A stretch of DNA of 58,214 nt from Candidatus Izemoplasmatales bacterium (GTDB taxonomy: Bacteria > Bacillota_I > Bacilli_A > Izemoplasmatales > Hujiaoplasmataceae), in the NCBI GenBank assembly GCA_050177605.1, contig JBFXGX010000010.1:1-58214 (forward strand). Direction: 5' to 3'. The position numbers and the translations under genes were made by a program. Of the stretch, positions 33,617 through 56,529 are shown piece after piece. Under the pieces are notes generated by a model. That model ran no database searches. It was not told the DNA's origin and was given only the letters and a program-made list of their open reading frames with translations. Within the stretch, counting starts at the first letter, position 1; each line of letters begins with the position of its first letter.

Positions 33617-34012
33617 CTATTTTTTAATTGAAATTTCAGTTTTTGTTAACTTATTTATAACATAAAAATATTTCTCTTTATCTTTTTTAAAAAATATAAG
33701 TATTTCGACTATTCTCCTAGTAAAAATATTCTTCAATGCTGCATTTTTGTGAACTTGAGAAGTTATTATTATACCCATAATTTTTTTACCATAACTCTGA
33801 AATTTAAATAGTCTATCAGAGAAAATATGGTGAATAACAATTAAAAACATATACAACCAAAATAAATAAGTACCTAACCCATTAAAAGATTGAGATATAG
33901 TATTATATAATAATGCAAAACCAATTATCAACGTAACTGATATAAGTATGTCTATTAAAACACTAATTAAATACTTATTTAGTAATATTTTATTAAAAGT
34001 TTGATTATTCAT
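33617..34012 (-). CDS. RDD-like membrane protein, putative immunity paralog
   Basis: SDRLFKFQSYGKKIMGI...RRIVE. Confidence 0.55.
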   Translation of the reverse strand: MNNQTFNKILLNKYLISVLIDILISVTLIIGFALLYNTISQSFNGLGTYLFWLYMFLIVIHHIFSDRLFKFQSYGKKIMGIIITSQVHKNAALKNIFTRRIVEILIFFKKDKEKYFYVINKLTKTEISIKK

Positions 34013-34017
34013 AATGT

Positions 34018-34422
34018 TTAATCCTTTTTTCCTAACAAAAAAATCTTGCTATTAGTTTTGGACTGTATTCTTTTCCAAGCTTCTTCTTGGTCATTATAGT
34101 AAAACGGATTATATATTAACTCTAGAATCCTTCTATAAGCTATTTGCTTTAAAGTTAGATTATTTCTCTCACTTGATGTATGTTTCATACTCGATATAGA
34201 AATACCATATAATCTTTTTCCTAAACTTCTCCCACCAAAAATCCTATCCGAGATAAAAAAACTTATAAACACTATCAATATAGATATAGTTAAAATGAAT
34301 CCTTGTTGTTCCAACATATAGAACATTACCAAATAAACCAGAATGGTAAGTATAAAAAACATAAACTGATCAAACAACACACTTTTGTTATACTTCTTGA
34401 TTGCTTCTCTAGTCACTTTCAT
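34018..34422 (-). CDS. RDD-like membrane protein, putative cognate immunity
   Basis: SDRIFGGRSLGKRLYGI...RRILE; start overlaps the Rhs 3' end. Confidence 0.6.
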   Translation of the reverse strand: MKVTREAIKKYNKSVLFDQFMFFILTILVYLVMFYMLEQQGFILTISILIVFISFFISDRIFGGRSLGKRLYGISISSMKHTSSERNNLTLKQIAYRRILELIYNPFYYNDQEEAWKRIQSKTNSKIFLLGKKD

Positions 34423-37400: not shown

Positions 37401-40400
37401 TCATCAAGTTCAATCTCAATAAGACGATTCTGATCATCATAAACATATTTTACATAAGGAGCTCCAGTCGATGACTCACCAACATAAACTCTATATAACA
37501 TTCCGTTATCATAATATTCATATTGAGTCTTCACTCCTTTTGCATTCTCAATATATTCTAATAAACCTGTTAATTCTTCAGTCTGATATTCAGTGGTGTT
37601 TCCAAATTCATCAGTCGAAGTTGCAAGATATTGGCTATTCCACATATATGTAGTACTAGTTGTAAAATAGGTTGTTTCATATCCCTGCGTCATTTCATAA
37701 TATGATCCGTATCCACTTATTTCCATGCCTGTAACTTGACCGTAACTGTTATAAGTTGGTGTGGATTTGATATTGTTTTTTTCTACATATTCGAGTTCTG
37801 ATCCATCAGAATCCAACTCCATGACAACATTATTATTCTCATCTATCGCCTGATATGGATAATAATCTTCATCACTTGCATAAAGGAAGTTATATTCCTT
37901 TCCATCATCCCAAGTAATTCTAATTAACCTATCAAGATCATCATATTCATAAGCTTTATTTGAAGCTTCAAAAAATACAGAAATACCATCAAAAATAACT
38001 TCTCCCAAACCTTGATATTCAAAAGAGATTCTTGCTGATGTGTAAGTGTAACTTGGTACATCAATTTCTCCATAGATATATTGCCAACTATATATACATT
38101 GATTAAAATCCACATGTTGTGTGTCTTCGCTATTTATTACATTTCCGTTGCTGTCAACAAACTCTACAGTTATTCTAAAAACCTTATCACCATCATAATT
38201 TGTATTTCCAACAAGAGGTGAAGAGTATGTATTCGCCCAAGAACCAACATAAAATGTTCCACCATTTCCAATCTGATCGAAATAGTTTTTCTCGATTGTT
38301 GTTGAGATGCTTCTAATATCAGTAGCAGAACCTTTTATACCAACAGCATGTTCGCTTAAAATCCATTCGAATGTATCATTAATGTCATTATTTCCATCAT
38401 TGATAGAATAATATGTCGTATAGTTTGGATCCGAAATAACCCATCCAGTTGTACCATTATTTTCAAATGAGGAATTCTCAACAATATTGACTCTACTGTC
38501 ATTAATGCCATCTACTACACTCACATTATCAAATCGTACATTTCCACCAGTTTCATTATACAAATATAGTGTAATCTCTGTATTATCTTCTCTAACATAA
38601 ATAGGAACACTGACATTCTGCCATCCACTACCACTCTCGACCTCTTCTGATGATACGCCAAGAACTTGTATATATGCTCCATTATCAGATCCAGATGTAT
38701 TATAAATGCTTGCCCTAAATGTATAGACGCCTTCATTTAGCACGATATCTTGATAGGCATATCCCCCAGTTGAAAAATCATTGGTTGCTATTGAATAATT
38801 ACCAACACATTCAATTGATGATTTATATGCTGTTAATTGTGATAATGACCATCCTGTATATGTTCCAATTTCAAAGCTGTAATTTTCTACCGGATTGTAT
38901 GTTAGCTTTTGTGGTACAGATTGATAAATCAACTCGTTATTTCTATAATAGTTATAATCACCACTAACATATGTTGATTCATCATTAAAAATATCTATGT
39001 AATTGTAATAGACTGTATTTGTTTTTTTATCAATTATATTTGTTGTATGACCATAATCATCAAATTTGTAAATAACAAAACTACCCGTGTGATCAGTAAT
39101 CGTTGTTTCCCTGAAACCATAATCGTAATTTACTTCTGAAAATTTTGTTGTATCGAAAAACGACTCTATAGTCATAATTTTATCGTTTATTGTGTTTATA
39201 TAAGTATATTCTATTTTTTCTCCATTTGTTACATACGCATACTGCAGTCTATCATAATAGTCATAGTCATAATTTGCTGTCGCATCAATATTGGTATCAT
39301 TATCCTGATCATAATCAGAATAGTACTTAACTTGACTTATATCCTCTGTTCCAGATTCATATGTATAAACAACCTTTTCAAGGTAGTCTGTTGAAGTGCC
39401 ATCAGACTCTATTTTCGCTGTTCGAAGTAAAATATACGACAAACTGTCGTTTGAATAGTAAAATCTTAAGTAATTATTCGATGAATCTTTAACATAGTTG
39501 ATTCGATCGGGATATGTTGAATCTCTACTGATGGTTATATAAAGGCTATACTCAATCTCCTTTATGCTTGTTAAATAACCTGAATTATTGTACGAAAATC
39601 TATTTGCTCCATCATATATATAATAACCTGCTAATGACCCATATATTGTCTTTTTATTAAGTATTTTTGCTGATCCATCTTCACTTACATAACATGTGTC
39701 TGTATATGGATATCCGGAGAGATAATTGCTTGGACATGAAGTTGGATAATAATAGACAATATTCCCTGTAAAGTCCGTGGTATAGTACAAATCCAAATCA
39801 TCATCATAATCTATCTTAGTATTATAACTAACATTCCAACCGTCTCCATAGCCAATATTATTATCCTTTTCCGAATTATTGTATGCAAAACTCACACCTA
39901 AACTCTGTTTATCCGTTGCAAAACTAAAGTCGGTTCTTGTAAAAGTAAGATATCCTGTATAATCTGATACATAGCCAGTACCAACAATCCCAATATCTTG
40001 AGAATTATAGGTCCAGTAATCTTTAATTCCAAAAGTATTCACAAAACCAATTTCGACAACAGGCCCCAATGTACTACTGTAGTTTTCAGAATTAAACCAA
40101 ATATAGCCATATTCTCCTTCATCCTGGCTTCTCAATTCTATCGTTCTGTATGGAGTTGAACTATTAGTCCACCTCTGCATATTATATGTAATGTCAAACA
40201 TATATGTTCCGGTATCTCCATCGGAATAGAGAACATTTGCAAAATCAATTTCTCTGGAACTAGTTATATTCAACCCTTCTGCGTTTATATTATCATAATC
40301 AACAGTAGCGAGCACTTCTTTTGCAAGAATAGTACAATCGTTTGTACAATAATTTCTTCCAGTATAGGTTTGAAGATATAGATGTGCATAATTAATTTTA

Positions 40401-41455
40401 ACATCATCCGGTATCTGACTTATGTCAAATTCCAAGTAACTTCTATAAGCTACAGAACCACTATACCCTGCTTTTATGTAGTTTGTGTCCAGACTGCTTG
40501 AACCAAAAACATATTTATCTCTAATAAGGTTGTCGTCACCATAATAGGTAACTGTAGGATCAATAGTAACTGGATAATTGGCATTCTTCAAAAACTCATC
40601 ATTAGGCTTGATTTCAATCTGATACTCATCTTTTTTGATTTGATTAACTACTAATCCAATGTCGCTGGATTCCGCGCCTTCGGAATCAAACATAACCATA
40701 TTGTTAAGCAGGAAGATTATTTCGTTTTCCTCATTCATAAACACAAAATTACCGTTTGCATCTTCCGACAGAATCAGACCTTTAAGAGTATATGTAAATG
40801 ACATCCTAAAATCCTCAATATATTTCTCTAGTAATATATTTTCTTTGATTTCATTTCCGTTCAGGATATACTCAAGATTAACGTTGTTTTGGACATTATC
40901 ATAAACAAGTTGTTGACTGATATTTGTTAAATCTTTAATGTTATTTGATAATTTTGCATTGTCATAATAGTTTATATCAGATTTATCAATACCCGTAACC
41001 GTCCAACTGATTTGATAATCATTATAGTTAAGTTTGAATTTCTTGTTTTCATCAATTTCCTTAGGAAATTTAATAGAGAAACTATTAGCGGTATTTGCGT
41101 ACTCGTTAGTAGATTCATCGTAAATCAACGAATTATCAATGTCTTTTAACTCGCCATCTTGTTCATAATGAATAACGCTATTATATATCGCCATAACATA
41201 AGTTCCATCTACTTTTCTGAAAGTTTTAGAGTCACTAGTTCTTTTGGATATAACTTCGCTGTCTATTTCTAAACTAGATATATCAAAATCAACATCGGAT
41301 GTGGTTTTGTAGTTTATTACCTCATCAGCATTTGACTCGACATTCAAACCGGAATCATATGAATCATAAGCATAAACCAACCTATTGTTCTGTGGAATAA
41401 CACTGTTTGCAACCATAAATAAACATAAAATTATTGATACAATTTTTCTTAACAT
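34409..41455 (-). CDS. Secreted WapA-like Rhs/YD-repeat polymorphic toxin (2348 aa)
   Basis: Signal peptide; YPVTIDP; repeated VENxSFE CBM-like modules; YD repeats; RYYNPEISRF...NNPIAYVDPEG core followed by a variable tip. Confidence 0.9.
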   Translation of the reverse strand: MLRKIVSIILCLFMVANSVIPQNNRLVYAYDSYDSGLNVESNADEVINYKTTSDVDFDISSLEIDSEVISKRTSDSKTFRKVDGTYVMAIYNSVIHYEQDGELKDIDNSLIYDESTNEYANTANSFSIKFPKEIDENKKFKLNYNDYQISWTVTGIDKSDINYYDNAKLSNNIKDLTNISQQLVYDNVQNNVNLEYILNGNEIKENILLEKYIEDFRMSFTYTLKGLILSEDANGNFVFMNEENEIIFLLNNMVMFDSEGAESSDIGLVVNQIKKDEYQIEIKPNDEFLKNANYPVTIDPTVTYYGDDNLIRDKYVFGSSSLDTNYIKAGYSGSVAYRSYLEFDISQIPDDVKINYAHLYLQTYTGRNYCTNDCTILAKEVLATVDYDNINAEGLNITSSREIDFANVLYSDGDTGTYMFDITYNMQRWTNSSTPYRTIELRSQDEGEYGYIWFNSENYSSTLGPVVEIGFVNTFGIKDYWTYNSQDIGIVGTGYVSDYTGYLTFTRTDFSFATDKQSLGVSFAYNNSEKDNNIGYGDGWNVSYNTKIDYDDDLDLYYTTDFTGNIVYYYPTSCPSNYLSGYPYTDTCYVSEDGSAKILNKKTIYGSLAGYYIYDGANRFSYNNSGYLTSIKEIEYSLYITISRDSTYPDRINYVKDSSNNYLRFYYSNDSLSYILLRTAKIESDGTSTDYLEKVVYTYESGTEDISQVKYYSDYDQDNDTNIDATANYDYDYYDRLQYAYVTNGEKIEYTYINTINDKIMTIESFFDTTKFSEVNYDYGFRETTITDHTGSFVIYKFDDYGHTTNIIDKKTNTVYYNYIDIFNDESTYVSGDYNYYRNNELIYQSVPQKLTYNPVENYSFEIGTYTGWSLSQLTAYKSSIECVGNYSIATNDFSTGGYAYQDIVLNEGVYTFRASIYNTSGSDNGAYIQVLGVSSEEVESGSGWQNVSVPIYVREDNTEITLYLYNETGGNVRFDNVSVVDGINDSRVNIVENSSFENNGTTGWVISDPNYTTYYSINDGNNDINDTFEWILSEHAVGIKGSATDIRSISTTIEKNYFDQIGNGGTFYVGSWANTYSSPLVGNTNYDGDKVFRITVEFVDSNGNVINSEDTQHVDFNQCIYSWQYIYGEIDVPSYTYTSARISFEYQGLGEVIFDGISVFFEASNKAYEYDDLDRLIRITWDDGKEYNFLYASDEDYYPYQAIDENNNVVMELDSDGSELEYVEKNNIKSTPTYNSYGQVTGMEISGYGSYYEMTQGYETTYFTTSTTYMWNSQYLATSTDEFGNTTEYQTEELTGLLEYIENAKGVKTQYEYYDNGMLYRVYVGESSTGAPYVKYVYDDQNRLIEIELDEDYSYFIHYDDAGRMDQVMVNTQLLMSYSYLENEVNLINVYDFGNNNIYESSGIIYTSSGYSTVTYNDETVELQANQINVDPNFGGFIEVEGSTTYTVSADILSITGSAMFNIFEYSGDPSTSTYIRVQKSSYISSPGELTKEFTTSSTTQYVIIAFYSSSTYTLEFRDLLLDENDGVETGILSNQTYGNGDEISFVYNEDGQVEYIRFTNSFGTEVTRFHYLYDSYGRVSVYEDLVNGTSENYEYDMQGRLSKVKFSNDDEIVYQYDDQGNLSNIEYNFGTITSNTYYNFETGAEQDFYDFTLYNNGNNTIKKDYIYNDYGLRNLLEIKYFLNSNSTSYFNLEFDYVTNTTRIDEITYNFTYSGYTDISYKYYYDSLGNITKEEYKENGSVQVKKEYVYDDYNQLIQESSRDYQYTTESAYENTNYSKYYYYDINGNIIDIREYGYGISDTVSPTIPSYYLSNNGSYTAVMFYNGSNDYMDTYNLAIGQTPSLSFIYYDMWDSNHDYPLTGMTTAMTYSNLNTSVEGYYYRTYHATYSNYDLTFRIVFKVGNPVGDFRSAEKHVSYTYDDDWLDQLESYSVLDNGVTKTSNISYDNQGNPTQITNFNYMGTKYNFATLHWDGRELVNITVYNSSLAVVAEIDYTYNDERIRIKKVIEDPLGMTTYDYILSGSSLVAEIVDNGYDSITGLRNQDYKILYNYDYYGTIIGFTLYSQGYTFDYIYVMNQFGDITHIITTSGTVAVEYKYDAFGNVVKVIGDAYIANANSFRYRSYKYDTETSFYYLKTRYYNPEISRFINSDGLLGRDTSLKSTNMYAYCENNPIAYVDPEGESILLTLTVILVSSLVAFCVVATTPADSGTGDNISVSAGGGTPDSAGFGGDAMGVGFGVQTNITSESCNAYGECSESTTTVNAQVGPFGGSHSINEDGSQSITASFLIFYVSVDPTNPLDLQSYGAGLSWSISGGQPGVGSFSASYDIDFFGLIVDAFKGGSDNESD

Positions 41456-41861: not shown

Positions 41862-43484
41862 TTATTGTTTGATATATCTTATAAATGTTAAACCAACCTC
41901 TGGATATCCCCATTTCTTGATTTGATTTACGGTTCTTACTACATTCACTTTACTAAAAAAAGGAATGTGAGACTTACCTGAAGCTGGTATTTCTTTACTG
42001 GTAACAATCCCCATTATTACATTACACTCACCACTTGAAAAAGAACCAATCTTAGTTCCAGTGTTTTCATCGTTCATTTTCTTAAGTATTTTGTCGTGAA
42101 AATATCCATCCTTAAATAGATCAGCCGAAACAGCGGCTTGAGAAAACAGATGACTTAATACGCTTGAACTTCCATATCTCTTAATGTGGATGAATGATTT
42201 TTCTGCTTTGTCAAACAAATCACAGATTTCTAATTTTCTACCTGAGTCACTAAATTCTCTATGATCCAATAAAATATATTTATCCTTATTGCTTTCATAA
42301 ACCTTTCTATTATATTCAGCTTCATTATTCTCACTAGTATATGGCATCAAAGTCGGAAAAGGAGATATCTTCAAGTACTCATCTTCATACTGATGATAAA
42401 ACTCTTTGCGTACTTCGAAAATTCTGCTGTCATTCAGAACATATTGAGCATCATCCACCAGAACTGATGCATACATACAATTAAACAATTTCCAATTGAT
42501 ATGTTCTAGGCTACCATCACTTGAATTTATTTTGACTTTGAACTTCTTAAGGATTTCCAGTTTCTCAATCTCGCTAAAATATGGTTCCAAGTATTCATGA
42601 ATTACATCATAATCTATTGAATCAACTTCTTTTGCTACTGCAAGGTTTGAATCTATTGCTTTTCCTTTATATAGCAGAAATGATTCAATCACATCCCAAT
42701 TAACATCTTCTGGAACCGAAAACCAAACCTTACCGGTATCTTGGGCAAAGAAGGCTTTCAATATTTCTTCATATATTTTTGGTATCAATGGATTCTTTTC
42801 TGTAATTTCTTTCATATTATCGATGAAACTGTATTCTTCTTTATATGTATCCTCTTCATATGTACTCATGCATTTTTCTAAAAGTGTATTTAACTCATCA
42901 AATCCAAAATGAGTAACTAATGACAAAGATTCACGTCCAGATAAATTCCCTATCGCAAAATCATTTGTCTTGGGTTTCACACTCACTCCATACAGTAAAT
43001 CTTGCTCAATATCGAAGACAAATTCATCTAGAGTCTGTTCGTGTGTTGCGCTTTCTTTCGATCTTGACATCGTGCTGCTTACACTTTTTTTGTTTACTGA
43101 GTAGATTTTATCCGCTAGATTTAATGCAATTTTCATTCCAAATCTGTCTTCAAATTTCTCCATGTCAAGCATGTTCTCCCCATTACCAAAAGTAATTGCG
43201 AATCTTCTTTCTTCTTCTTTGTATACTATTTTTCTAAATATCAATCCCATTGCATATGAAACAACCAGATATACATCTGATTCCTCTTGATCTAGATATG
43301 TTCTGAACCATCCTGGATTTCTACCACCATATGCTCGATAATACAATACGGTTTCTTCTTCATCTCCTAGTTTGAGTATGCGGGGGTAGTTTTTATCTCC
43401 TTCTTCATACTTGAGTAATTTTTCATCAGGGTCGTCTATATCTTTCTTAACAAGAAAAATCTTAATTCTATGATTGTCACTCAT
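41862..43484 (-). CDS. TIGR04141/DUF6119-like sporadically distributed protein
   Basis: FAITFGNG, RFGMKIALN, LEICDL...FIHIKR...SSVLSHLFSQ. Confidence 0.7.
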   Translation of the reverse strand: MSDNHRIKIFLVKKDIDDPDEKLLKYEEGDKNYPRILKLGDEEETVLYYRAYGGRNPGWFRTYLDQEESDVYLVVSYAMGLIFRKIVYKEEERRFAITFGNGENMLDMEKFEDRFGMKIALNLADKIYSVNKKSVSSTMSRSKESATHEQTLDEFVFDIEQDLLYGVSVKPKTNDFAIGNLSGRESLSLVTHFGFDELNTLLEKCMSTYEEDTYKEEYSFIDNMKEITEKNPLIPKIYEEILKAFFAQDTGKVWFSVPEDVNWDVIESFLLYKGKAIDSNLAVAKEVDSIDYDVIHEYLEPYFSEIEKLEILKKFKVKINSSDGSLEHINWKLFNCMYASVLVDDAQYVLNDSRIFEVRKEFYHQYEDEYLKISPFPTLMPYTSENNEAEYNRKVYESNKDKYILLDHREFSDSGRKLEICDLFDKAEKSFIHIKRYGSSSVLSHLFSQAAVSADLFKDGYFHDKILKKMNDENTGTKIGSFSSGECNVIMGIVTSKEIPASGKSHIPFFSKVNVVRTVNQIKKWGYPEVGLTFIRYIKQ

Positions 43485-46863: not shown

Positions 46864-47934
46864 CTATTCAAACATTTTTTCGTTTACTGTAATAGACTTC
46901 TTATCAAAATCAACTTTCCCTTTAATTCCATAAGGAACAATGGTCCTTGGCAATGCATGTCCAAAATTTAAGTTATATACTATGGGTAAATCAATATCAT
47001 TAGATATCTTCAATAATACTTCTTTATATTCTTGATAATAGACCTCATCGTATGGTTTGCCAATCATTAAACACCTAGCATGACTGATAACACCTTCTTC
47101 AATTAAGTAGTAAAGCATACTTTGAAACTTTGTCGGTGTTGGCTTCTCTTCACTTGTTTCAAGGAATATGATTTTGTCAGTAAAAAAATCTTTGCTAGGA
47201 ATTAACCCATACTGATTATAAATATGTCTTTGATCTTGATACCTCTCACTTGTATACAAATCATAGATACTTTCTAGACATCCACCCCAAAAAACACCAT
47301 CAATGACACCCGATCCATTTAAGAACTCATGCCCTTTGTTTTCATCTGAAGCGATCAGTGGCACAGATAGTTGATCTATGTCATAATTTGTTCTATTCAA
47401 GTACCATTTCGAACTAGATTTTATTTCAAATGATTCATCATTCAGAAATAACCTCTGATAACTTTTATGTGTATAAGGAATCATTTCATTTTGTAGTTCA
47501 CAAAGATCTGATAAGAAATTTAATCCATAATAAGTTACTAATCCCAGTTTATTTAGCATTAGATGATTATTGGTTGAATCTGAAAACCCTACAAAAACTT
47601 TTGGATTTGTGCGTACAATATTTGCGAATTCCTCATTCATAAGATAAGGTATCGTTTTGTAAGTATCATCCCCGCCAATAGCACAAATAATGCCCATGAT
47701 AGTCGGATCTTTAAATGCAAGTCTTAAATCATCAGCTCTTTTAATTGGATTGTTTTTCACAAAGTTTAATCCTTTTAGTGAATGTGGCATAAAGACAGCT
47801 TCAAGACCTAATTCCTCTAATCTTTTTATACCAAGTTCTAACTGGTGTCTTACTTTATGTTCACCTAGGATACCTGATGATAAACTTACAATTGCGATTT
47901 TGTCACCTATTTTAAGTTGTTTGGGTTTAATCAT
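46864..47934 (-). CDS. S66 family peptidase (LD-carboxypeptidase/MccF-like)
   Basis: IGGDD, GFSDST, GGCLE, FLETSEE, NFGH catalytic motifs. Confidence 0.88.
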   Translation of the reverse strand: MIKPKQLKIGDKIAIVSLSSGILGEHKVRHQLELGIKRLEELGLEAVFMPHSLKGLNFVKNNPIKRADDLRLAFKDPTIMGIICAIGGDDTYKTIPYLMNEEFANIVRTNPKVFVGFSDSTNNHLMLNKLGLVTYYGLNFLSDLCELQNEMIPYTHKSYQRLFLNDESFEIKSSSKWYLNRTNYDIDQLSVPLIASDENKGHEFLNGSGVIDGVFWGGCLESIYDLYTSERYQDQRHIYNQYGLIPSKDFFTDKIIFLETSEEKPTPTKFQSMLYYLIEEGVISHARCLMIGKPYDEVYYQEYKEVLLKISNDIDLPIVYNLNFGHALPRTIVPYGIKGKVDFDKKSITVNEKMFE

Positions 47935-48808
47935 TATTATCCTCCAAATCTACTTTAATTTGCTTCGTAATGGATTTAAAAAATTCGCGACTCCAAAGGT
48001 CTATAGTAAATTGCTCTTTTATAAATGGTCTAACATCGGATTTCGCAATATCATAATCAATCTGTTCGAATCTTTTTTCTAGTATGTCAATTAACAAATC
48101 TCTAGTCAATTTGATGTTATCGTCTATGGTTTTTGTTTGTTTCAGTCTAGCTTCTAAGTGTTTTAAATTCACTTTTGTCTCTAAACTTAAATAATATACA
48201 TAATCGTATAAATCTCTACCTTTTATGCGGTTCTTCCAACTTCTAGCAATCACAGTATGAATTTTACCAGCAAATAACGATGATTCATCATAAACCCTAA
48301 CTTGGTATGGAAATGGTAGTAAACGAAACTTAATTTCTGTATGTGCATATAGCGGTGGATTCACATCAACTTCAAACTTAATGATGATCTTCTCATTATG
48401 GATAATAAACCTAGAATCCGATGAACTCGGATAAATAGTAATCAGTGTTTCTTTAGTATTGCCATTAATGAATGCAGAATCGATATTTGAGTTCAATGCC
48501 TTATCCTTTTTGGAAACTTCAAAATCGAGTCCAAGTGAGTTCACAACGTCACTTATCGGTTTAAAATATTTACTCATATCAAAAGCATCATTTGCTACAA
48601 TAAGGGTAAAGTCCAAATCCTCACTAAATCGATCCATCCCGTAAAAAATTCTTAAGGCTGTTCCACCATAAAAAGCAGCATGGGTAAAAAAGTCGGTTTT
48701 AGAAAGGCCAGCCAAAACCACTTCTTGTAAAACTTCTTTTATTGCGTTCTTTTTATCTTCTATGGTCTTCGGATTATACTTATTGATCATCTGTTGAATA
48801 ATTGTCAT
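47927..48808 (-). CDS. AbiEii/AbiGii nucleotidyltransferase toxin (type IV TA)
   Basis: FYGGTALRIFYGMDRFSEDLDF, KGRDLYD. Confidence 0.9.
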   Translation of the reverse strand: MTIIQQMINKYNPKTIEDKKNAIKEVLQEVVLAGLSKTDFFTHAAFYGGTALRIFYGMDRFSEDLDFTLIVANDAFDMSKYFKPISDVVNSLGLDFEVSKKDKALNSNIDSAFINGNTKETLITIYPSSSDSRFIIHNEKIIIKFEVDVNPPLYAHTEIKFRLLPFPYQVRVYDESSLFAGKIHTVIARSWKNRIKGRDLYDYVYYLSLETKVNLKHLEARLKQTKTIDDNIKLTRDLLIDILEKRFEQIDYDIAKSDVRPFIKEQFTIDLWSREFFKSITKQIKVDLEDNND

Positions 48809-49395
48809 TTGATATACTCACTTTCAATGAATTTTCTTAAATACTTCATATTGTTCGATATATATTTATCGGATAAAAACAGGATTTCATCAAAGTTAAG
48901 TTGTTCAAACATATCTTTATTTATTCGCAAATCCTCAAGAAGTACCATTTTTAATTCTTTGATACTTGTTACAGGCTTTCGTATATATAGTAAATCACAT
49001 AGTGCTTTTTCTGGGCTCGCTATAAAGTAAGCATACCCGTTTTCTTCATGAGCATTTACCGCAAAAGGAAACGCAGCGTTTGGAACATCTCTATAGGTGT
49101 ATAGTCCGAAATGATTTTGATAGGACTTGCTTTTTCGTTTGTTGAATGTGGCATTCGTATAAACAACAACTCTTTCAGGAATGAGATTATGATATGAAAG
49201 TGCATATTCAAAAGATAAATAGGATGGTCCATAAATATAAGATGCAAGTAAAAATCCATCAATAGAACTGCTGGTTTCATAGATGCCTCGTACTAGAGGA
49301 AATAAGAAACCTTTGTCGATGTCCCTTTTGATTTTGCCATTAATATCCGTATAATCCTTATACTTTTCTTTTAGGTTTAATGTTGTAACTATCAT
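48805..49395 (-). CDS. AbiEi-like antitoxin
   Basis: RGIY, PSYLSFEYALSYHNLIPE, ASPEKALCD; ATGA-coupled to the toxin gene. Confidence 0.85.
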   Translation of the reverse strand: MIVTTLNLKEKYKDYTDINGKIKRDIDKGFLFPLVRGIYETSSSIDGFLLASYIYGPSYLSFEYALSYHNLIPERVVVYTNATFNKRKSKSYQNHFGLYTYRDVPNAAFPFAVNAHEENGYAYFIASPEKALCDLLYIRKPVTSIKELKMVLLEDLRINKDMFEQLNFDEILFLSDKYISNNMKYLRKFIESEYIK

Positions 49396-49665
49396 ATTAT
49401 TTCCTCCACTTAATTTTATTATATGCAATTATATGGAGACAATCAATACATTTATTCTAATTAGTAGCGTATTACCAAAAGTAATTAGTATTATTCAAAA
49501 TACAATCGATTATTGTGAAACATATCACGTAAAAGATGGATTAACTAAGATGCTTACCTGAGTTGTGGTGATATAATTTTTAGAAGAATTGATGTCCCCC
49601 CACTCAAGTAAAATATATGCTTAATGCATAGTCTGATGTTTCCACATTACGCATAAAATGAAAAA

Positions 49666-49704
49666 AGAAGCATTTAATCCTGTTTGAAGGGATTAAATGC
49701 TTCT
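49666..49704 (-). terminator. Hairpin downstream of displaced rlmD tail
   Basis: agaagcatttaatcc-N9-ggattaaatgcttct. Confidence 0.75.
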
Positions 49705-49728
49705 TCTACTGTTGCATGAATGGCTTTG

Positions 49729-49870
49729 TTAAGCTGTTTTTAAAGAAAGCATCGTGATAGTTTCAACGTGCATGGAGTTTAGTGGATTGCTTTCAAAACG
49801 GCACCACAAATTCATTCGAATAATGTAGTCTGGTAACATGTTTTGTGCCATAAGCACACTTGGAAAAGGA
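49729..49870 (-). repeat. att-like junction: about 90-bp arm plus displaced rlmD tail SMHVETITMLSLKTA*
   Basis: Arm closely matches 56655-56745. Confidence 0.85.
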
Positions 49871-49899
49871 GAAAACTCTTAAACGAAATATTCATTTTC

Positions 49900-50202
49900 T
49901 CACCTCCGGTCCACTGCAAAATATATGATTTCACTATCGTAATACCCACTTGCCGGACCTAAATCCCACGAAAGTTGGTCCGGCGTCAACCCTGATTTGT
50001 GAAGAATAGATGAACCACCAGTCCCGTGTTTCTCGGCCCACTGGCCAGTATTGGTCTGAACCATAAAGTGATAGTCATATACATATTTGCCATGTCCACC
50101 TGTCCCAATTGGGATTGTTGTTCCAACTCTCAAGGCTATTCTCCATTCATTGCTTTCTATGTCTGCATTTGGTCCTGAAATCTTCCGTACTGTAAATCCC
50201 AT
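49900..50202 (-). pseudogene. Orphan toxin-tip-like fragment
   Basis: DYHF..Q...G.W..K.G motif; last module of the Rhs array; no core or immunity gene. Confidence 0.45.
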
Positions 50203-50229
50203 GACAATCCATAATATTTTTTCCCTAAT

Positions 50230-50691
50230 TTAGTCATTATCAACAAAAACTTCGCGTATTACCCCTCTTACAAATCGAGCAATTGCGATATTCTGGTTTA
50301 AATTAATCTGTTGCCATAATTTATCCGCATCAACTGGAGCTTTCGGAAGAAACCATAATACAGATTGAACCACTACAGCTGTTCCAAAAGTAATAGATGC
50401 ATTAATCGTTGTTTCCTTGAAGGATAACCCGTCGTTAATGCTATGCGCAATTGAGGTTGCTGTTGCTAAAGCAATTTTTCCTGCTACAATGTATGCTGCA
50501 CCAAGTCCTGAACTTACGAGAGCTCCATAGGCTGCTCCACTTAGTGTTTCAATTGCAAATCCCTCAAAATGAATTCATCACCTGTTACTAATATTGAAAA
50601 ACTATAACTAAGAGCTCCAAATAAGGCTCCAACAATAGCTCCTATTAAAAATTTGCGCCATTTCCCCATCAGGATCAAAGTTCATTACCGG
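50230..50691 (-). pseudogene. Displaced Rhs tip (PVMNFDPDG...), two frameshifts; not in ORF track
   Basis: Manual translation: PVMNFDPDGEMAQ / LIGAIVGALFGAL / AIETLSGAAYGAL...VFVDND*. Confidence 0.7.
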
Positions 50692-50715
50692 AGTAATGTA
50701 TACGAGAGTATACAA
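50683..50715. repeat. Rhs cassette junction site
   Basis: cattacc-gg-agtaatgtatacgagagtataca; 27/32 identical to 53216-53247. Confidence 0.75.
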
Positions 50716-50789
50716 ACGTCTTTTCGGTAATTGAGTTGACCATATCTGTTACCTTGCTTTTTCGATGCGTGTATTCTCATGTCTCCCTA

Positions 50790-51401
50790 CTACTGAAAAT
50801 TTCCTAAATTTCTAAGGAGCCCCCTAAATGTGAATAAAATGACACTTCGAGGATCTTCCTGTGAATATTGTTGGTCCCACATTATTGAATACCCAATATT
50901 ACCTGTCATATCATCATAGTGATAGTAATAACAAGTTACATCCTCGTCTGTTTGTTTTTCTTCAAATATCTGCTTATATATTGTTACACCACCTTGGTAA
51001 TCAAAAATCACTTGATTTGTCACATTGTCAATAAATGATATATATTTTTCATATTTTGAATACTCTAGTAAGTTCTCAAAACTCTCTTCGTAGTGCCATA
51101 ATTGGGCATAAAAGAATGCCACATTCATATCGTTTGTGAAATGAAAAACAATCTCGAAATCGTTGAATATATATTGAATTTCAAAACTATCATTTCCGAG
51201 AATTTGAGTTATCGGATTTCCATCGAAATCGTATTCCAGAGCAATCCCGTCAATTAGTGTCAATACTTCAGATAGATACACTCCAACAAAGTCTTCATCG
51301 CTTTCATTCCAGTTTGCGTAGGAAGCATAATTCGGATTCGAGGAGCAACCAACAACAAAAACAAAAAGGAACAATGCCAAAATTAAAAATATTCTTTTCA
51401 T
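50790..51401 (-). CDS. Lipoprotein, putative immunity
   Basis: MKRIFLILALFLFVFVVGC lipobox; follows Rhs tip. Confidence 0.7.
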   Translation of the reverse strand: MKRIFLILALFLFVFVVGCSSNPNYASYANWNESDEDFVGVYLSEVLTLIDGIALEYDFDGNPITQILGNDSFEIQYIFNDFEIVFHFTNDMNVAFFYAQLWHYEESFENLLEYSKYEKYISFIDNVTNQVIFDYQGGVTIYKQIFEEKQTDEDVTCYYYHYDDMTGNIGYSIMWDQQYSQEDPRSVILFTFRGLLRNLGNFQ

Positions 51402-51405
51402 ATTT

Positions 51406-52072
51406 TCACTCTCCAAATGGCCAAGCATTTCCCAAAATACGGCGAAAATATGTTTTGGGGGTCTGCGTCGTTTCAAAATCAACATATTGTGCTCGATAGA
51501 CTTGTTGTTCAAACCAATTTCCATTGATATTTGAGTCAAATCTCAGACTTGTTAATGAATTGTATAATCTATCATGATATTCAAATTCCCTTAACATCTG
51601 TCCGGTAGTCCAATCAGAATATTGATCTGAATATTGATTTTGTAGATAGAGAATAAAACTCAATTTTTCTTCTCTGCTGAGACCGGTGGTATTGTTTCCT
51701 CTCAATATGCTTTCAGCCTTATCCTTGTCCATTGTAGAAACATCGCTATTGTTGATATATATCTCTGATTCAACGACTGTAGCAACATTGGAGCCAAGTA
51801 GGTATCCTGCTCCTGCGGCTGCAACGGCGACCAAAGCTCCCCCACCAGTAGCGACAACAATAACAACAGCCACAGCTGCAACCGCCAATCCTCCAGCAAC
51901 CTTCCAAAATGTTGTCCATGAATATCCGTCGCTGTCTAGATACATTACTGGATTATTTGCGCAATACGTATACATATTCGTGGAAAGGATATCGCCAACT
52001 TGACCAAGTAATCCATCCGCATTGATAAATCTTCCCACTTCAGGGGTATAATACCGGCTATTGAGATAATAC
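51406..52072 (-). pseudogene. Orphan Rhs core end plus toxin tip
   Basis: YYLNSRYYTPEVGRF...NNPVMYLDSDG; about 150 bp nearly identical to about 54380-54525. Confidence 0.8.
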
Positions 52073-52205
52073 CTATCCAATATGTTTTTTGTGCTTGATA
52101 GATAATACTTTGTCTGTATATTTAACTATAAGAATCTGAACACTAAAAAGAAACAAATATAAGAAAACTAGTTTAAATAAAAAGCCAATTAATGAAAACC
52201 TTCAG

Positions 52206-52640
52206 TTATGAGGTAATATCAATAAATAATGCTAATATGCGAAGAAAATCTTCCTCAGAGCATTGTCTATATAACCCTCCAGTACTTTCGCCAGAACTTG
52301 AATAGAATTCGGTTGCATATTGACTTAATTTTTCATAACTACCATCTTTGTCATATATAACAAAAACATATCCTCTTACACTGTCTAGATCTCCTAAAGG
52401 ATAATAAAACTTAACTTGTGATATTTCATCTATGAATATATCCGCTTCGTCAGTAGTTAAATCTTTTATGAATATTATTTCTTGTACACTCCGGGAACTA
52501 GAATTAAGAATAATTTGCTCGATGGATATATGGTCTACATTTTCCACCATTTCGTCATATGAATAGGAATACTCACCTTGACATCCAATTACTCCTAAAA
52601 AAAGCATAAGCAAAACAAACATTAATATATATTTTTTCAT
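52206..52640 (-). CDS. Lipoprotein, putative immunity
   Basis: MKKYILMFVLLMLFLGVIGC lipobox. Confidence 0.7.
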   Translation of the reverse strand: MKKYILMFVLLMLFLGVIGCQGEYSYSYDEMVENVDHISIEQIILNSSSRSVQEIIFIKDLTTDEADIFIDEISQVKFYYPLGDLDSVRGYVFVIYDKDGSYEKLSQYATEFYSSSGESTGGLYRQCSEEDFLRILALFIDITS

Positions 52641-52642
52641 AA

Positions 52643-53224
52643 CTATCTATTTACTCCTCCAAAATAATCGGCTGTAGATTCCCATAGAAAATCATAATAA
52701 TGATCGTAATAATACTGGTACTTCCTAGCAAGTAAATTAACTGTCATCGATGGTATAGCAACTATAGCAACGTACCCTGCAAAACCAAGTATAGATAATT
52801 GAACTGTATGCCCCCATTCATGTTGTAATGATGTTACATCGCTTGTTCTTTCAAGAAAAATCATTCCGAATGAAAACGATGAAAGAAATGAGTTTTCAAA
52901 TCTAATAACTGCTGTTCCTTTATAAAAACTGATCTTTTCTGAATCAAATGCTAGATTAGCATCTCTATTAAATGGATTCCACTTTATTCTTTTAATATCT
53001 TCATATACTGTTTCATCCCACGACGATGACATAATAGCAAATCCATAAGCTGATATATTCATCAAAAATTGTGGAACGGATGCCAGACCGGGAATTAAAC
53101 TTAGAGGAGCAGTAGCTATAAGTGCTGAGATTGATAAGGCTGTGATAATTGCTCCTCCAATAAAGCGACCAACGTCTTTGATCCATTCTGCAATAAACCC
53201 ATTTGGATCGTTTAACATTACTGG
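52643..53224 (-). pseudogene. Displaced Rhs tip with HEXXH motif
   Basis: Begins PVMLNDPNG with no upstream core; contains QHEWGH. Confidence 0.72.
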
Positions 53225-53247
53225 AGTAATGTATCCAGGAGTAGACA
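53215..53247. repeat. Rhs cassette junction site
   Basis: acattact-gg-agtaatgt inverted repeat followed by a conserved arm. Confidence 0.75.
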
Positions 53248-53362
53248 CAAGACAAAAATGTTTTTATGAACACACACCATTTGAGATTATAATTCCACTG
53301 TGTAAACTTAATTTTATTTACGTGAAATAGAGAAGTCAAATACAATTTCCACTTAATTAATC

Positions 53363-53839
53363 TTATATTCTGGCATATGAATATGATGCAATTATTTCTT
53401 GTAGAATAGTAGTGTCCATTGCTTCAACTAAGAAGACAAAACTTGTAGAATAACCAGGATCATTGTTACTTTGCATAAATATAGTATACAACTCCATTTC
53501 ACCGTCAGGAGTGGAAAAACGATAAAGTGAGAAATGTGCACCGGTTGACCCTGAATAATCACTACTAATTAGTTCAATTCGCGAATATGATTCAAAATAC
53601 TCATTGTATGCCCATTCCCCATACATTCCATGATATTCTTCAATGGCTAAACTTTCTTGGGTGTCAGAATTTATTATTGAAATCCATCCATCGCTTTCAA
53701 CGAAATCCCAATCTAGCGGAAGTTCAACTGAACCTAGTTTTTCATCAGGAATATTGACCTTTTGATAACCATTCGAATTCGAAGAACATCCTATCAAAAA
53801 AAAGACAATTATTAGAGCACATGTTATTATTTTTTTCAT
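53363..53839 (-). CDS. Lipoprotein, putative immunity
   Basis: MKKIITCALIIVFFLIGC lipobox; RBS aggagg. Confidence 0.7.
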   Translation of the reverse strand: MKKIITCALIIVFFLIGCSSNSNGYQKVNIPDEKLGSVELPLDWDFVESDGWISIINSDTQESLAIEEYHGMYGEWAYNEYFESYSRIELISSDYSGSTGAHFSLYRFSTPDGEMELYTIFMQSNNDPGYSTSFVFLVEAMDTTILQEIIASYSYARI

Positions 53840-53857
53840 ATTATCATCCTCCTTCTA

Positions 53858-56293
53858 TTAGTATATTGGGGACAAATTCGAAATTCCATATAAAATTTCA
53901 GCGAGCGATTCCGCAATAAAAGCGGTTGGATCAGAACCCCAAACAGGAACTCCTAAAGCAGCTGGGTTGCTATGATCTGGGAAAAGTCCCAAATCATATG
54001 CTATATAATGCCCTTGTAGTTCGATATACATTCCCAATTCAGTTCTTCGAGAGTTGTTAGAATAATATGTGTTCTTGAGATAATTCGCATAAAGACCTGC
54101 GGTGTAGCAACTATAAAACGAATTGCCTTCCAAATCAAAATAAAAATCAATCATGTCGATATTAGGGTCTGGGTTTGGGATAATTGTAGATGATATTTCA
54201 TCCCAATTATCTTTCACCGGTAAATAGTCACCTAAGATTATTCCTGATGCAGTATATCCTGCAAGTTCCCAGCCTTCAGAACCAAGATCCTTTGCTGTTT
54301 CATAAGCTTTCATTGCTCCATGTACAGCAAGAGTAGTCATAATTGTCACAATCAAAAAGACAAATATAGCAAATTCCCCGTCGCTGTCTGTATACATTAC
54401 TGGATTATTAGCACAATACGCAAACATATTCGTTGAAAGGATATCTCCAAATTGACCAAGTAATCCATCCGCATTGATAAATCTTCCCACTTCAGGTGTA
54501 TAATACCTGCTATTGAGATAATACCAAGAAAGTTCTTCATCGTAGCGGTATCCGCGATATCGATACGGATTGATGTCCCCAATGGTTTGGTTCGGAGTTT
54601 GATTAGTGATATTGCCATAAGCATCATAGACATAATGCACCACAACATTCCCAAAACTGTCCACAATATGTGAAATGTCGCCCATTTGGTTTCTTAGGTA
54701 GAAATATTCGGTTCCAGCATATTGATCGTTGACATTTGAATCGTAGTTGAAACTGATCAAGGTCCCATCGAAATCATACGTAAACAGTATACCATAAGTT
54801 CCGTTTGTTTCGTATATCACTTTGTCATCAATTAGCTCATAAGTAACCGTTTCAGTCAAAACAGGGGTGTAGCCAGAGAACGTGTAGAAAGCCTTCGAAG
54901 TCCGATATCCTTGGTCGTTATACTTGTAACGGATTTGATATGCAGGAGTCGAACTTCCCGACATGATCGTGATAGTACTCAATTCTCTTCCGCTCCATGA
55001 CAAGCTTGCGCCATAATAAGTGGTCCCGTTGTAAACGAAATTCGTGATATAAGTCGGGTTGCCTTGATTGTCGTAGGTGTATTGCTGAAGGGTGGCTTCC
55101 GTTTGAGGAACTCCGTTGATGTATTCAATCTCACTTTAGCTTAAGAGTTGGGCTTCCCAGTTGCTGCTGTAGTTGTAATGAAGATGTTCTTGAGGTATCG
55201 TATTGTATGGTAGTGGAGTACCCACCTTGATTACAATTCGGAATGAAATGGTGTAGTACATTCCGTCCGTTGCGGTATACTGGCGATAATAATAGCCAGC
55301 CACTGATGTGTTGAGATTATCATACGTCATTGTTGTGGTCATTCCTGAAATCGGGTACTCATGATCAAAATCCCATTCATCATAGTACGCAAATGATAAT
55401 GATGGCGTTTGACCAACATTTAGGTAATACATATTTTGATACGTTTTGTTTCCATTGTAAAGCATGTTAGCATCATATAGCCCGGAATTTGATTGGTAGT
55501 ATGATGGGGCTGTCGGTGTTATTATATCATTTTGCCCATACAAGAATGTCTTGACATCAGTTCGGTTTCCATGAGAATCATAATAGTAATATTTGGTGTA
55601 ATTTGAGGCAGACAGGGTTGTTGAACTATAGTTGTAGTCTCTACTGTCCTCTACAATCAATTGATTGAGCGCATCGTACTCATAATTTCGGTATAGCTTG
55701 AGTGTGGTTCCTTCATAGTAATACTCTCGAATAATATTTCCAAGAGAATCGTAATTGTATGAGTACTAGTAGTCTACTCCTGTCCCATTCAATTCGTAGG
55801 TGATTTGATTAATTCTGGTTGTATTGCCCGAATAAACGAAGTTTTGCTTGATGTTCAAACTACTCCAAGTCAAATTGATGTACTCAAGTCGGTATAATGC
55901 TTCATCTTCGTAATGATAGTCTTTCACCATATCAAAACCAGAAGCGGACTCATATTCGGTTTTGTCATACAAGCTCGAAGTTTGGATGCAAGCATCGTTT
56001 TCATCATACAAGAAACATTCATTATATGTGTAGTTTGTGGTAGAAGATTGGCCAACAATTTCAAAATATAAAGATGTCAAGTTTCCAGAAACATCATAGA
56101 TGTATTTGATGATGTTTCCTTCCTCATCCACCGCCTGGATCAGATGGCCGTTTGAATCATATGTATAAAACTCGCTTGCCACAACCTCATTCGTTGTCGT
56201 TTCTGGAAGCGAATTGGCGTAAGTTTGTTGTATGTTCGGAAGAAGGCTTCCGAGCATCGCGATGATGCCTAGGATTGCGAAAAAGCGTCTCAT
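53858..56293 (-). pseudogene. Internally deleted Rhs toxin gene with two in-frame stops
   Basis: Three listed ORFs share one frame, interrupted by TAG (55766) and TAA (55136); signal peptide is fused to late YD repeats; paralog of 34409-41455 (GQTPSLSF..MTT..NLNTSV.GYYYR). Confidence 0.85.
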
Positions 56294-56529
56294 TTTCCAT
56301 TGAAGTCTTGCGCAAGTGCTAATGTGAATTCTGTGCTAACTTCATGTTCTAACCATTTTTACATTGTCAATTTCTCCTTAAAAAAGGCATGCAACTTGTG
56401 TGCACACCCTAGATGTAAAGTAAAAATGATAGTAATAAACCAAACTGATATTTTCATTATATACCCCCCCGAAATATTGTCAATATTTTAAAATAAATAT
56501 TTATTATTAGTTTATTTTTTTTCATAAAA

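Follow-up and report, generated by a model that had tools for sequence, protein, structure and literature searches.

The DNA analysed here, called the window throughout, is the whole 58,214-nt contig C10 (JBFXGX010000010.1) of a Candidatus Izemoplasmatales bacterium, and on its minus strand lies a gene for an Rhs toxin followed by a row of toxin tips and candidate immunity genes, two of the tips standing as orphans. We propose, with a probability of about 0.88, that a short arm found ahead of the orphan tips and the first codons of the inserted tips (P′) are the two ends of small mobile elements, which are moved by a TndX-like large serine recombinase (LSR) and thereby insert tips in frame into Rhs. 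The anatomy of these elements, the boundaries of their sites, the association of the LSR gene with the site, and the presence of the same LSR end beside different tips were observed directly and carry the proposal. The assembly (GCA_050177605.1) comprises 66 contigs and 1.94 Mb at 89% completeness, and the genome has a GC content of 34%.

Read 5′ to 3′, the Rhs gene (56293-53858) has the core end …FAYCANN-P-VMYTDSDG, which runs into tip A, and then come immA, a 24-nt arm, a CC dinucleotide, the orphan tip B and immB; the later part of the locus consists of a 148-nt repeat of the core end, tip C (PVMYLDSDG…), immC, a second arm, CC and the orphan tip D. Two cassettes are delimited in this order, cassette A (54401-53225) and cassette C (51949-50692), neither of which holds an LSR gene. 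A preliminary description of the window, made from its letters, had remarked that the cassettes contain no recombinase, and the same holds for the rest of the window, that is, for the whole of contig C10. The genes of the locus are the following (aa, amino acids).

54404..56293, minus strand: Rhs shell gene up to the integration point, with a signal peptide, RHS/YD repeats and an Rhs-associated core domain; a pseudogene.
53858..54401, minus strand: tip A, a toxin candidate in frame with the core, to which it is fused; without a family in Pfam or NCBIfam.
53363..53839, minus strand: immA, a candidate immunity gene of 158 aa with a lipoprotein-type signal; no family found.
52643..53222, minus strand: displaced tip B, PVMLNDPNG…, which contains HEWGH; its Pro codon begins at 53224.
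52206..52640, minus strand: immB, the candidate immunity gene for tip B, 144 aa with a lipoprotein-type signal; no family found.
51406..51949, minus strand: tip C, a toxin candidate; no family found.
50790..51401, minus strand: immC, 203 aa with a lipoprotein-type signal.
49900..50689, minus strand: displaced tip D, PVMNFDPDG…, a pseudogene with at least two frame switches (three-frame translation); its Pro codon begins at 50691.

The preliminary description had read this locus as tip-plus-immunity cassettes inserted at the NNPVM codons through a palindromic site, and its measurements stood when they were repeated: the arms at 53216-53247 and 50683-50714 are identical at 27 of 32 positions, an exact inverted complement of 10 nt is found at both cassettes, and GG (CC on the minus strand) occupies 54402-54403, 51950-51951, 53223-53224 and 50690-50691. 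The cassette sizes it had given, about 1179 and 1260 bp, are the CC-to-CC periods of 1179 and 1260 nt, each divisible by 3; counted inclusively, the ranges are 1180 and 1261. In both orphan tips, the first codon is indeed the Pro of PVM (PVMLNDPNG at 53224, PVMNFDPDG at 50691), each unit consists of one tip and one lipoprotein-type gene, and both inserted tips read PVMYxDSDG. The opposition it had drawn between DSDG in inserted tips and DPxG in displaced ones holds within the window and is not a rule, since DSDG is one P′ type and the P′ of other elements encodes DPSG, DISG or DSTG. The sites themselves, named as attachment (att) sites with left (attL) and right (attR) junctions and half-sites B, P and P′, are laid out as follows.

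54404..54427, minus strand: B half-site of attL-A, the last core codons (…FAYCANN), similar at all left junctions; its length of 24 nt is presumed by analogy with the lengths of P and P′.
54402..54403, minus strand: CC of attL-A (GG on the plus strand), the first two bases of the Pro codon and the likely crossover dinucleotide.
54378..54401, minus strand: P′ half-site of cassette A, encoding VMYTDSDG, with which tip A opens and the Rhs core model closes.
53225..53248, minus strand: P arm of cassette A (in attR-A), GTGTCTACTCCTGGATACATTACT; identical to the arm of locus L031 at 27/27 nt and to that of contig C53 at 23/24.
53223..53224, minus strand: CC of attR-A, in the Pro codon of displaced tip B.
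51952..52073, minus strand: core fragment preceding cassette C, covering positions 30-75 of the TIGR03696 profile.
51926..51951, minus strand: CC (51951-51950) and P′ half-site of cassette C, encoding VMYLDSDG.
50690..50715, minus strand: P arm of cassette C (50715-50692) and CC (50691-50690); the nearest arm is that of locus L042 (20 nt, 95%).

On the plus strand, 53225-53234 and 50692-50701 both read AGTAATGTAT, the exact reverse complement of ATACATTACT at 54392-54401 and 51940-51949. A repeat search extends the dyad of cassette A to 13/14 nt, and over 24 nt the reverse complement of P agrees with P′ at 16 positions for A and at 12 for C, the inner 10 positions being exact in both; such an imperfect dyad is what a recombinase dimer would bind. 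The 19-nt pattern of arm plus core occurs twice in the window (at most one mismatch) and in none of 100 dinucleotide-preserving shuffles. CC is present at all junctions and forms the centre of the dyad, as the preliminary description had supposed of a 2-bp centre. The attL and attR sequences differ right after CC in several elements (A versus G at the C/D junctions and at L010) and right before TCC in all of them, and therefore the exchange point lies within TCC. Half-sites of about 24 nt, an imperfect dyad and a 2-bp crossover together give the site the build of an LSR-type att site, as judged from its sequence.

The coding half of the site is conserved as DNA. The 24-nt P′, including GACAGCGACGG, is kept in 10/10 elements of the DSDG type, synonymous positions included and despite differing cargo; it uses the rare codons GAC-AGC-GAC (in this genome, GAC makes up 20% of Asp codons and AGC 7.5% of Ser codons), and divergence begins directly after P′ even where the cargo is unrelated. 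Identity in rare codons ahead of unrelated cargo therefore points to a constraint at the DNA level and not at the protein level. Insertion keeps the reading frame because P′ supplies the last eight residues of the core domain along with the new tip. On the other side, several arm classes exist (…STHGYITPVM, …LHSRYITPVM, …LISxY[IM]TPVM and …VTPIHITPVM), and an inner ACAT[TG]ACT-CC is common to all of them. The similarity of cassettes A and C to LSR-bearing elements is limited to the 19-24-nt arm and begins exactly at it; when their spacers from immunity gene to arm (138 and 98 nt, arm included) were compared with 12 LSR elements, the arm alone matched.

When the genome of the window was searched for the arm, a third copy appeared on contig C53, where it adjoins a recombinase gene. 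On the reverse strand of C53, an Rhs core fragment, …YCGNN-P-VMYTDSDG, leads into a glycine-rich tip and is followed by the genes for a 108-aa membrane protein and a 527-aa LSR; the arm starts at the LSR stop codon, and then come CC and the displaced tip PVMYVDPSG, the unit measuring 2833 nt from CC to CC. From this arrangement, it follows that the arm is attR's P half-site and that P′ is made up of the first 24 nt of the inserted tip. The C53 protein (N-terminus …ITALYCRISRED…) has the Resolvase (PF00239), Recombinase (PF07508), Zn_ribbon_recom (PF13408) and DUF4368 (PF14287) domains of an LSR, and its relatives carry the same four domains in precomputed annotations; the protein collection contains more than 100 such relatives. 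Its best annotated plasmid match is TndX of Tn5397 (37.6% identity, 99% of the query, E 1e-100), with sub-threshold NCBIfam matches to CcrC and CcrB, and it is the only LSR of its kind in the assembly. Autonomous elements of this sort hold three genes, for tip, immunity protein and LSR, and no helper gene. The preliminary description had deduced a trans-acting serine recombinase from the palindrome; a TndX-like LSR that ends in the same arm lends support to that deduction, and an enzyme of this type would be the one that moves the cassettes.

The association of LSR and site was surveyed from both ends, following searches that the preliminary description had suggested. Genomes, taken one per species, and metagenome contigs were scanned with an arm-only pattern that had nothing 3′ of CC; the genomes gave 19 loci and the contigs 22. 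Of these 41, 25 are related (8 and 17), and the other 16 are chance matches in unrelated organisms with neither tip nor LSR. Among the 25 related loci, an LSR gene ends at the arm in 13, nine are LSR-less (meaning that the available upstream sequence holds a tip and a small gene in place of an LSR), and three are too near a contig end to be assessed. A tip of the form P[VIL][MILV]..D..G follows 18 of the 23 assessable arms. Units with an LSR measure 2792-2836 nt and those lacking one 762-1260 nt, which makes two length classes; besides A and C, the LSR-less units are those of L023, L025/40/44, L026/46, L035, L037 and L043. Cassettes A and C keep both half-sites and have no recombinase gene inside, which is the anatomy of a cis-mobilisable element; the stacked arrays and arm-CC-P′ junctions of other loci provide the layout that mobilisation by a neighbouring element would require.

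Because this sample had been picked by its arm, the reverse search was run from the LSR: the C53 protein was compared with all 158 genomes of the order without use of the arm, and 30 loci were obtained. Twenty-four of them have LSRs of at least 41% identity, one being an N-terminal fragment, and all 23 others carry …CT-CC-NGTNAT at or just behind the stop codon (at L060 and L072, which have a lost stop and a frameshift, respectively, it was read from the sequence of the locus), while the site stands beside 0/6 of the LSRs with 37% identity or less. A tip follows in 21 of 22 loci of the closer group, L062 being cut by the contig end. Across the order, the arm pattern is present in 12/158 genomes and 10/34 genera, and in 0/4 of the further genomes that belong to the genus of the window; a reversed control had 0 matches. 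At L014:6020 (the same locus as L060), the LSR stop has changed from TAG to TAT, and the recombinase frame reads through the arm into the displaced tip, a frame of 553 aa.

Signs of mobility come from comparisons between elements. Over about 1400 nt, C53 and L022, the latter from a different species-level genome, agree in their LSR and arm at 98-100% identity; past CC another tip starts, and identity in the first 100 nt there is down to 42%. In genome G147, two LSR copies have the same arm and different tips behind it. Unrelated cargo travels with LSRs of 80-96% DNA identity, and therefore tip-immunity modules and recombinase modules have been reshuffled. Junctions of the form arm-CC-P′ occur in L049, and multi-element arrays with intact and broken LSRs in L048, L054 and L025; going by the order of their units, these arrays and junctions show repeated entry at the same place, apparently including entry into the attL of an earlier element. 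The arrays of L048 (genome G006, a 1.94-Mb contig) and L054 (genome G090) are long ones behind one full-length Rhs gene; their tip-immunity pairs number up to six, their LSR genes, partly frameshifted, two to four, and their arm classes three, and they lend themselves to working out the sequence of insertions. A metagenome contig, L039, consists in its whole length of 2799 nt of one unit with TCC and P′ at its start and arm and TCC at its end, which fits a circle or an assembly break at a repeat; the contig of L017 likewise begins at TCC and P′.

The LSR-less cassettes have relatives of both kinds. L031 is an LSR-bearing counterpart of cassette A (73.6% over 853 nt, covering core end and tip A), in which the tip is followed by an immA homologue, a 538-aa LSR and the arm that matches the arm of A throughout. 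Therefore, the LSR-less cassettes may be deletion derivatives or cis-mobilised passengers and not a designed class of cassette. LSR-less homologues of A (L026/L046 and L043) precede other tips, and an LSR-less homologue of C is found in L035. The half-sites of A differ by 0-2 nt from those of LSR-bearing elements, so that cassette A is a plausible substrate for the C53 enzyme. The LSR of L042, the locus with the arm nearest to that of C, is 62% identical to the C53 LSR. The oriented sequences of L026 and L046 (5007-5300) are identical over 5 kb, including the LSR-less cassette, and differ from 5 nt after CC, where one has a full displaced tip with its immunity gene and the other a 19-codon stump; the cause of this difference is recombination at the site or else chimeric assembly.

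Taking these parts together, we propose the following route. The autonomous form, of about 2.8 kb, would consist of a toxin tip, an immunity gene and the LSR gene, ending in the arm right behind the LSR stop, and its circular form would carry attP as P-CC-P′, an imperfect dyad of about 24-2-24 that extends the 10-2-10 palindrome. The LSR would recombine attP with the conserved end of the Rhs core, attB being …YC(A/G)NN-P-VMxxDxxG, cut at the CC of the Pro codon. As P′ encodes the same last core residues as the target, the incoming tip would be fused in frame to the resident Rhs shell, its matching immunity gene would arrive with it, and the old tip and immunity gene would be pushed downstream behind the arm. 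Further elements could enter at the same place because the new attL would still resemble attB; arrays would thus grow, with the newest tip expressed. Cassettes A and C would be non-autonomous members that have both half-sites and no LSR. We infer the recombination chemistry, the circle, and that A and C are mobilised, whether in trans or by accretion; excision may need no helper protein, by analogy with TndX and TnpX.

The resident shell is recognisable and damaged. The main Rhs gene has a PF05593 RHS_repeat match, and TIGR03696 scores 70.7 bits (cutoff 32.5) over residues 126-209 of the open reading frame (ORF) 55003-53858, in which the Pro of NNPVM is residue 201; with RHS/YD repeats and a TIGR03696 core running to the PxxxxDxxG border, the gene has the makings of an Rhs toxin. 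Its frame is not intact, being interrupted by TAG at 55768-55766 and TAA at 55138-55136. A related contig in metagenome run X4, about 90% identical, has TAT where the window has TAA (55136 T>A), and therefore the second stop is a nonsense change in the lineage of the window. An alternative genetic code was considered for these stops and ruled out, there being one TAG and one TAA and long ORFs elsewhere that are normal under table 11. A second Rhs gene of the window (34409-41455, minus strand) is intact and encodes 2348 aa with RHS_repeat and DUF6531 matches and the end …YAYCENNPIAYVDPEG; its site at 34939 is the variant NNPIAY, unoccupied, with inner B′ bases unlike those of targeted sites, and to judge by these bases this gene may be refractory to the LSR. 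Downstream of it lie two genes for small RDD-family proteins (34018-34452 and 33617-34012, minus strand). On contig C29 of the same assembly, a short orphan Rhs fragment (a 251-aa frame; site at 16488, minus strand) reads …TYTENNPVMNIDPSG and presents an unoccupied target-like site.

Tips A, B and C and the three genes behind them match no family in Pfam or NCBIfam, so that their roles as toxins and immunity proteins are suggested by position only. Homologues of tip A occur in L031, L026/L046 and L043, each followed by a homologue of immA, and in L035 a homologue of tip C is likewise followed by one of immC. Members of the tip B family are present in L025/L040 and L046, and a homologue of tip B is joined at NNPISLTDANG to a 730-aa RHS protein (P0001; 34% identity, 100% of the query); the occurrence of this family as the normal C-terminus of an RHS protein supports the view that tip B was formerly attached to Rhs. 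The lipoprotein-type signals of the cassette genes read LIGCSS and VVGCSS.

Several observations weigh against the movement of these elements by the C53-type enzyme, or against its activity in this organism. The main Rhs frame is broken by two stops, tip D is frameshifted, and the Rhs pieces on C53 and C29 are 5′-truncated, damage that may point to decay of the system in this genome. A contig of 4.8 kb holds the LSR gene, whose co-residence with the window genome rests on binning; moreover, L017, a 4157-nt contig filed in an archaeal metagenome-assembled genome (MAG) of 'Methanolobus sp.', is identical to C53 over the compared 3.1 kb. The L017 record is probably a mis-binned mobile contig, and the C53 LSR is probably, if not certainly, in the same cell as the window locus, the uncertainty arising from the shortness of C53 and from the identical record under an archaeal MAG. 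The arm of cassette C differs from that of C53 at several positions, and an LSR like that of L042, the likely lineage for C, was not found in this assembly. In the surveys, 5/23 assessable arms (L010, L023, L024, L041 and L035) and the LSR locus L066 (at least 41% identity) lead into non-tip sequence; about 6 nt after CC are target-like there and some of these loci have an LSR, and they may be secondary integration sites or later deletions behind the arm. Related genomes and metagenome contigs are not independent, and when duplicates are joined (L017 = L033 = C53, L024≈L041, L025 = L040 = L044, L026≈L034≈L046) about 19 distinct places are left. The left boundary is less sharp than the right one: pairwise identity around the left CC (L014/L042/L010/L013) resolves it weakly, because the elements have diverged and the core end is conserved anyway.

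The products of excision were also sought. The circle junction and the restored NNPVM alleles that the preliminary description had predicted did not appear: in metagenome contigs of the four runs X1-X4 on 50300-56300, there was no circle junction and no allele joining NNPVM to tip B or tip D, an absence that is weak evidence because contigs drop rare variants. One joint from 53238 to 54387 (X1, a single contig with 24 letters on its short side) may be another cassette with the same ends. Metagenome contigs break and pile up at 53215, 53248 and 54369-54404, which shows only that the arm and the core end are repeats joined to many sequences in those metagenomes.

That this is a dedicated system of Rhs warhead exchange, made of a clade of LSR elements of about 2.8 kb and of LSR-less cassettes mobilised in trans or by accretion, has in our estimate slightly better than an even chance. 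A weighty competitor, to which we give somewhat less than an even chance, is that A and C did enter by an LSR and are now fixed relics, whose LSR gene was deleted, which no longer move, and whose arms are scars. The LSR-bearing counterpart L031, the pseudogene state of Rhs, the broken tip D, the lack of an excision product in contigs, and the broken LSR genes common in arrays such as L025, L048 and L054 would all suit such an end. Against it, at least six types of LSR-less cassette keep the arm whole and nothing else of the LSR gene, and P and P′ of A have stayed within 0-2 nt of those of LSR-bearing elements. Homologous LSR-less cassettes (A of the window, L043 and L026/L046) also precede different tips, and cargo and LSR modules have been reshuffled, with LSRs 80-96% identical beside unrelated cargo.

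Other origins of the locus are much less probable. Classical C-terminal displacement by homologous recombination in the core, with the arm as a diverged remnant of the core end and the recombinase an incidental neighbour, is in our view very improbable, even though the core fragment and P′ of cassette C do form a 148-nt repeat, 93% identical to 54378-54525, which is the usual orphan signature of homologous recombination, and even though the parts of a survey of polymorphic toxins at hand speak of tip exchange simply as 'recombination' (PMC3482391). From the repeat it is clear that homologous or duplicative events, too, have had a part in shaping the locus. However, that core stretch is present only to the left of cassette C, whereas ahead of the orphan tips B and D stands the arm, which is unlike core (…STPGYIT against …YCANN) and lies at an LSR stop codon in 13 loci. 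The site is beside 23/23 assessable LSRs of the clade and 0/6 of the more distant ones, the identity between copies stops at CC, and donor and target have only about 10-12 nt of homology in common, which is less than RecA-type exchange needs. A strictly integron-like system, with a single-stranded attC-like hairpin and a tyrosine recombinase, would also explain a palindromic site, promoter-less cassettes of tip and immunity gene, and arrays growing at one end; it is less plausible still, as the site goes with a serine recombinase, the three-gene autonomous elements hold no tyrosine recombinase, and a 2-bp centre with imperfect dyad arms of about 24 nt suits LSR sites, which here include coding sequence. 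The term 'integron-style' used in the preliminary description thus survives as an analogy of shared logic and fails as to mechanism, the enzyme being a serine recombinase and not IntI and the sites double-strand dyads and not attC hairpins. Least probable of all, to the point of being negligible, is that the two arms are one local duplication of no wider meaning, as two arms identical at 27/32 positions and 2.5 kb apart in one locus might suggest. The arm is present also on C53, in 25 loci of other genomes and metagenomes and in 12/158 genomes of the order, and the arm of A is nearer to that of L031 (27/27) than to that of C; this objection, which the preliminary description had itself raised, therefore falls. 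Movement of the elements by a TndX-like LSR is the reading that we retain.

As for the neighbourhood of the locus, an Rfam search of 49500-56500 gave no family. Just downstream of the Rhs array, a gene for an AbiEii-type nucleotidyltransferase toxin (PF08843) overlaps an upstream 207-aa gene without a Pfam match (47927-48808 and 48805-49428, minus strand), and together they resemble a type IV toxin-antitoxin system. A 540-aa DUF6119 protein (E 4e-104) is encoded at 41862-43484 (minus strand), in the interval that separates the window's Rhs loci.

Among known systems, the transposons Tn5397 (TndX) and Tn4451/Tn4453 (TnpX) come closest, sharing the domain set of the recombinase, the position of its gene at the element end beside the att site, and a 2-bp crossover. 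In the portions of the reports available here, TndX and TnpX are described as integrating and excising without accessory factors, and TndX as preferring a conserved Fic-domain coding sequence as its target (PMC2475636, PMC4430133). The absence of a helper gene from C53-type elements fits this reported helper-free, two-way activity, and like TndX, as described there, the present enzyme would aim at conserved protein-coding sequence, the Fic domain there and the Rhs core end here. The differences are as clear: those transposons are 6-21 kb long, have a GA centre and carry drug resistance, whereas the elements here have about 2.8 kb, three genes and a CC centre, carry a tip and an immunity gene, and include non-autonomous cassettes and stacked arrays. 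Moreover, the target here would be the last codons of the Rhs core, with an attP that encodes the start of the new tip and so yields an in-frame fusion.

The ssrA islands of Dehalococcoides (DsiB) and the SCC elements (CcrAB/CcrC) offer a second parallel. For the former, the accessible part of the report describes tandem LSR insertions at a gene 3′ end and proposes that units without the integration module move by accretion, as if cis-mobilisable (PMC3146451); judging from such partial sources, both groups resemble the present elements in repeated integration that rebuilds a conserved gene end and in arrays bounded by target repeats, and the ssrA islands also in having some units that lack an integration module. 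In these systems the same product is restored (tmRNA, rlmH), whereas here a new toxin domain changes the phenotype of the target gene, and the present elements are about ten times smaller with a single recombinase gene.

Jackson et al. are said to have described in 2009 the displacement arrays of Rhs and CdiA C-termini with their orphan tips. As in such arrays, among the reports of which, so far as its available part goes, is Koskiniemi et al. 2014 (PMC3967940), tip and immunity gene are replaced here at a PxxxxDxxG border, old pairs accumulate downstream, and cassette C carries a core fragment; unlike them, for which homologous recombination via the core is the accepted mechanism, the present arrays have recombinase half-sites and an element-encoded enzyme. 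In the excerpts available of the polymorphic-toxin survey of Zhang et al. 2012 (PMC3482391), recombination with cassettes is described and recombinases are mentioned only beside polyimmunity loci. Those loci, with their XerC/D-type enzymes, are similar in that a site-specific recombinase is proposed to gather conflict genes into arrays, and they differ, as presented there, in holding immunity genes only, in using tyrosine recombinases, and in loading no toxin tips onto a delivery protein. With integrons, the present system shares the capture of promoter-less cassettes at a fixed site, expression of the newest, and arrays that record history; it differs in its serine recombinase in place of the IntI tyrosine recombinase, in lacking attC hairpins, attI and Pc, in expression through translational fusion to a resident gene, and in a recombinase that travels with the autonomous cassette. 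LSR elements with att sites, accretion arrays and passengers are already known, and what is new is the Rhs target, the coding attP, the in-frame loading of toxin tips, and the minimal size. A search of open-access papers and bioRxiv, which a report in a subscription journal could escape, gave no paper tying a serine recombinase to tip exchange in Rhs or other polymorphic toxins.

In conclusion, tip acquisition by Rhs, CdiA and LXG toxins has for more than a decade been described as 'recombination', with homologous core exchange as the model, at least in the part of the literature represented by the available text of PMC3482391, and a named enzyme with its sites makes the question directly testable with a single protein and two sites of about 50 bp, an in-frame fusion being the predicted product. 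It is an unusual use of an LSR, in that the attachment site codes for the start of the cargo protein and the target gene is reprogrammed and neither restored nor disrupted; small self-contained elements with a short conserved coding target may also interest users of serine integrases as tools. If the proposal is true, a site-specific enzyme and not homologous recombination would drive the diversification of toxin tips in these bacteria, and the conserved last codons of the Rhs shell would serve as both landing site and expression platform, with earlier immunity genes kept. The toxin-immunity pair would then also serve as the addiction module of the element itself. In ecological terms, the proposal suggests that toxin-immunity pairs travel between Izemoplasmatales-like bacteria of anoxic habitats as selfish units, taking over a delivery shell that is already resident.

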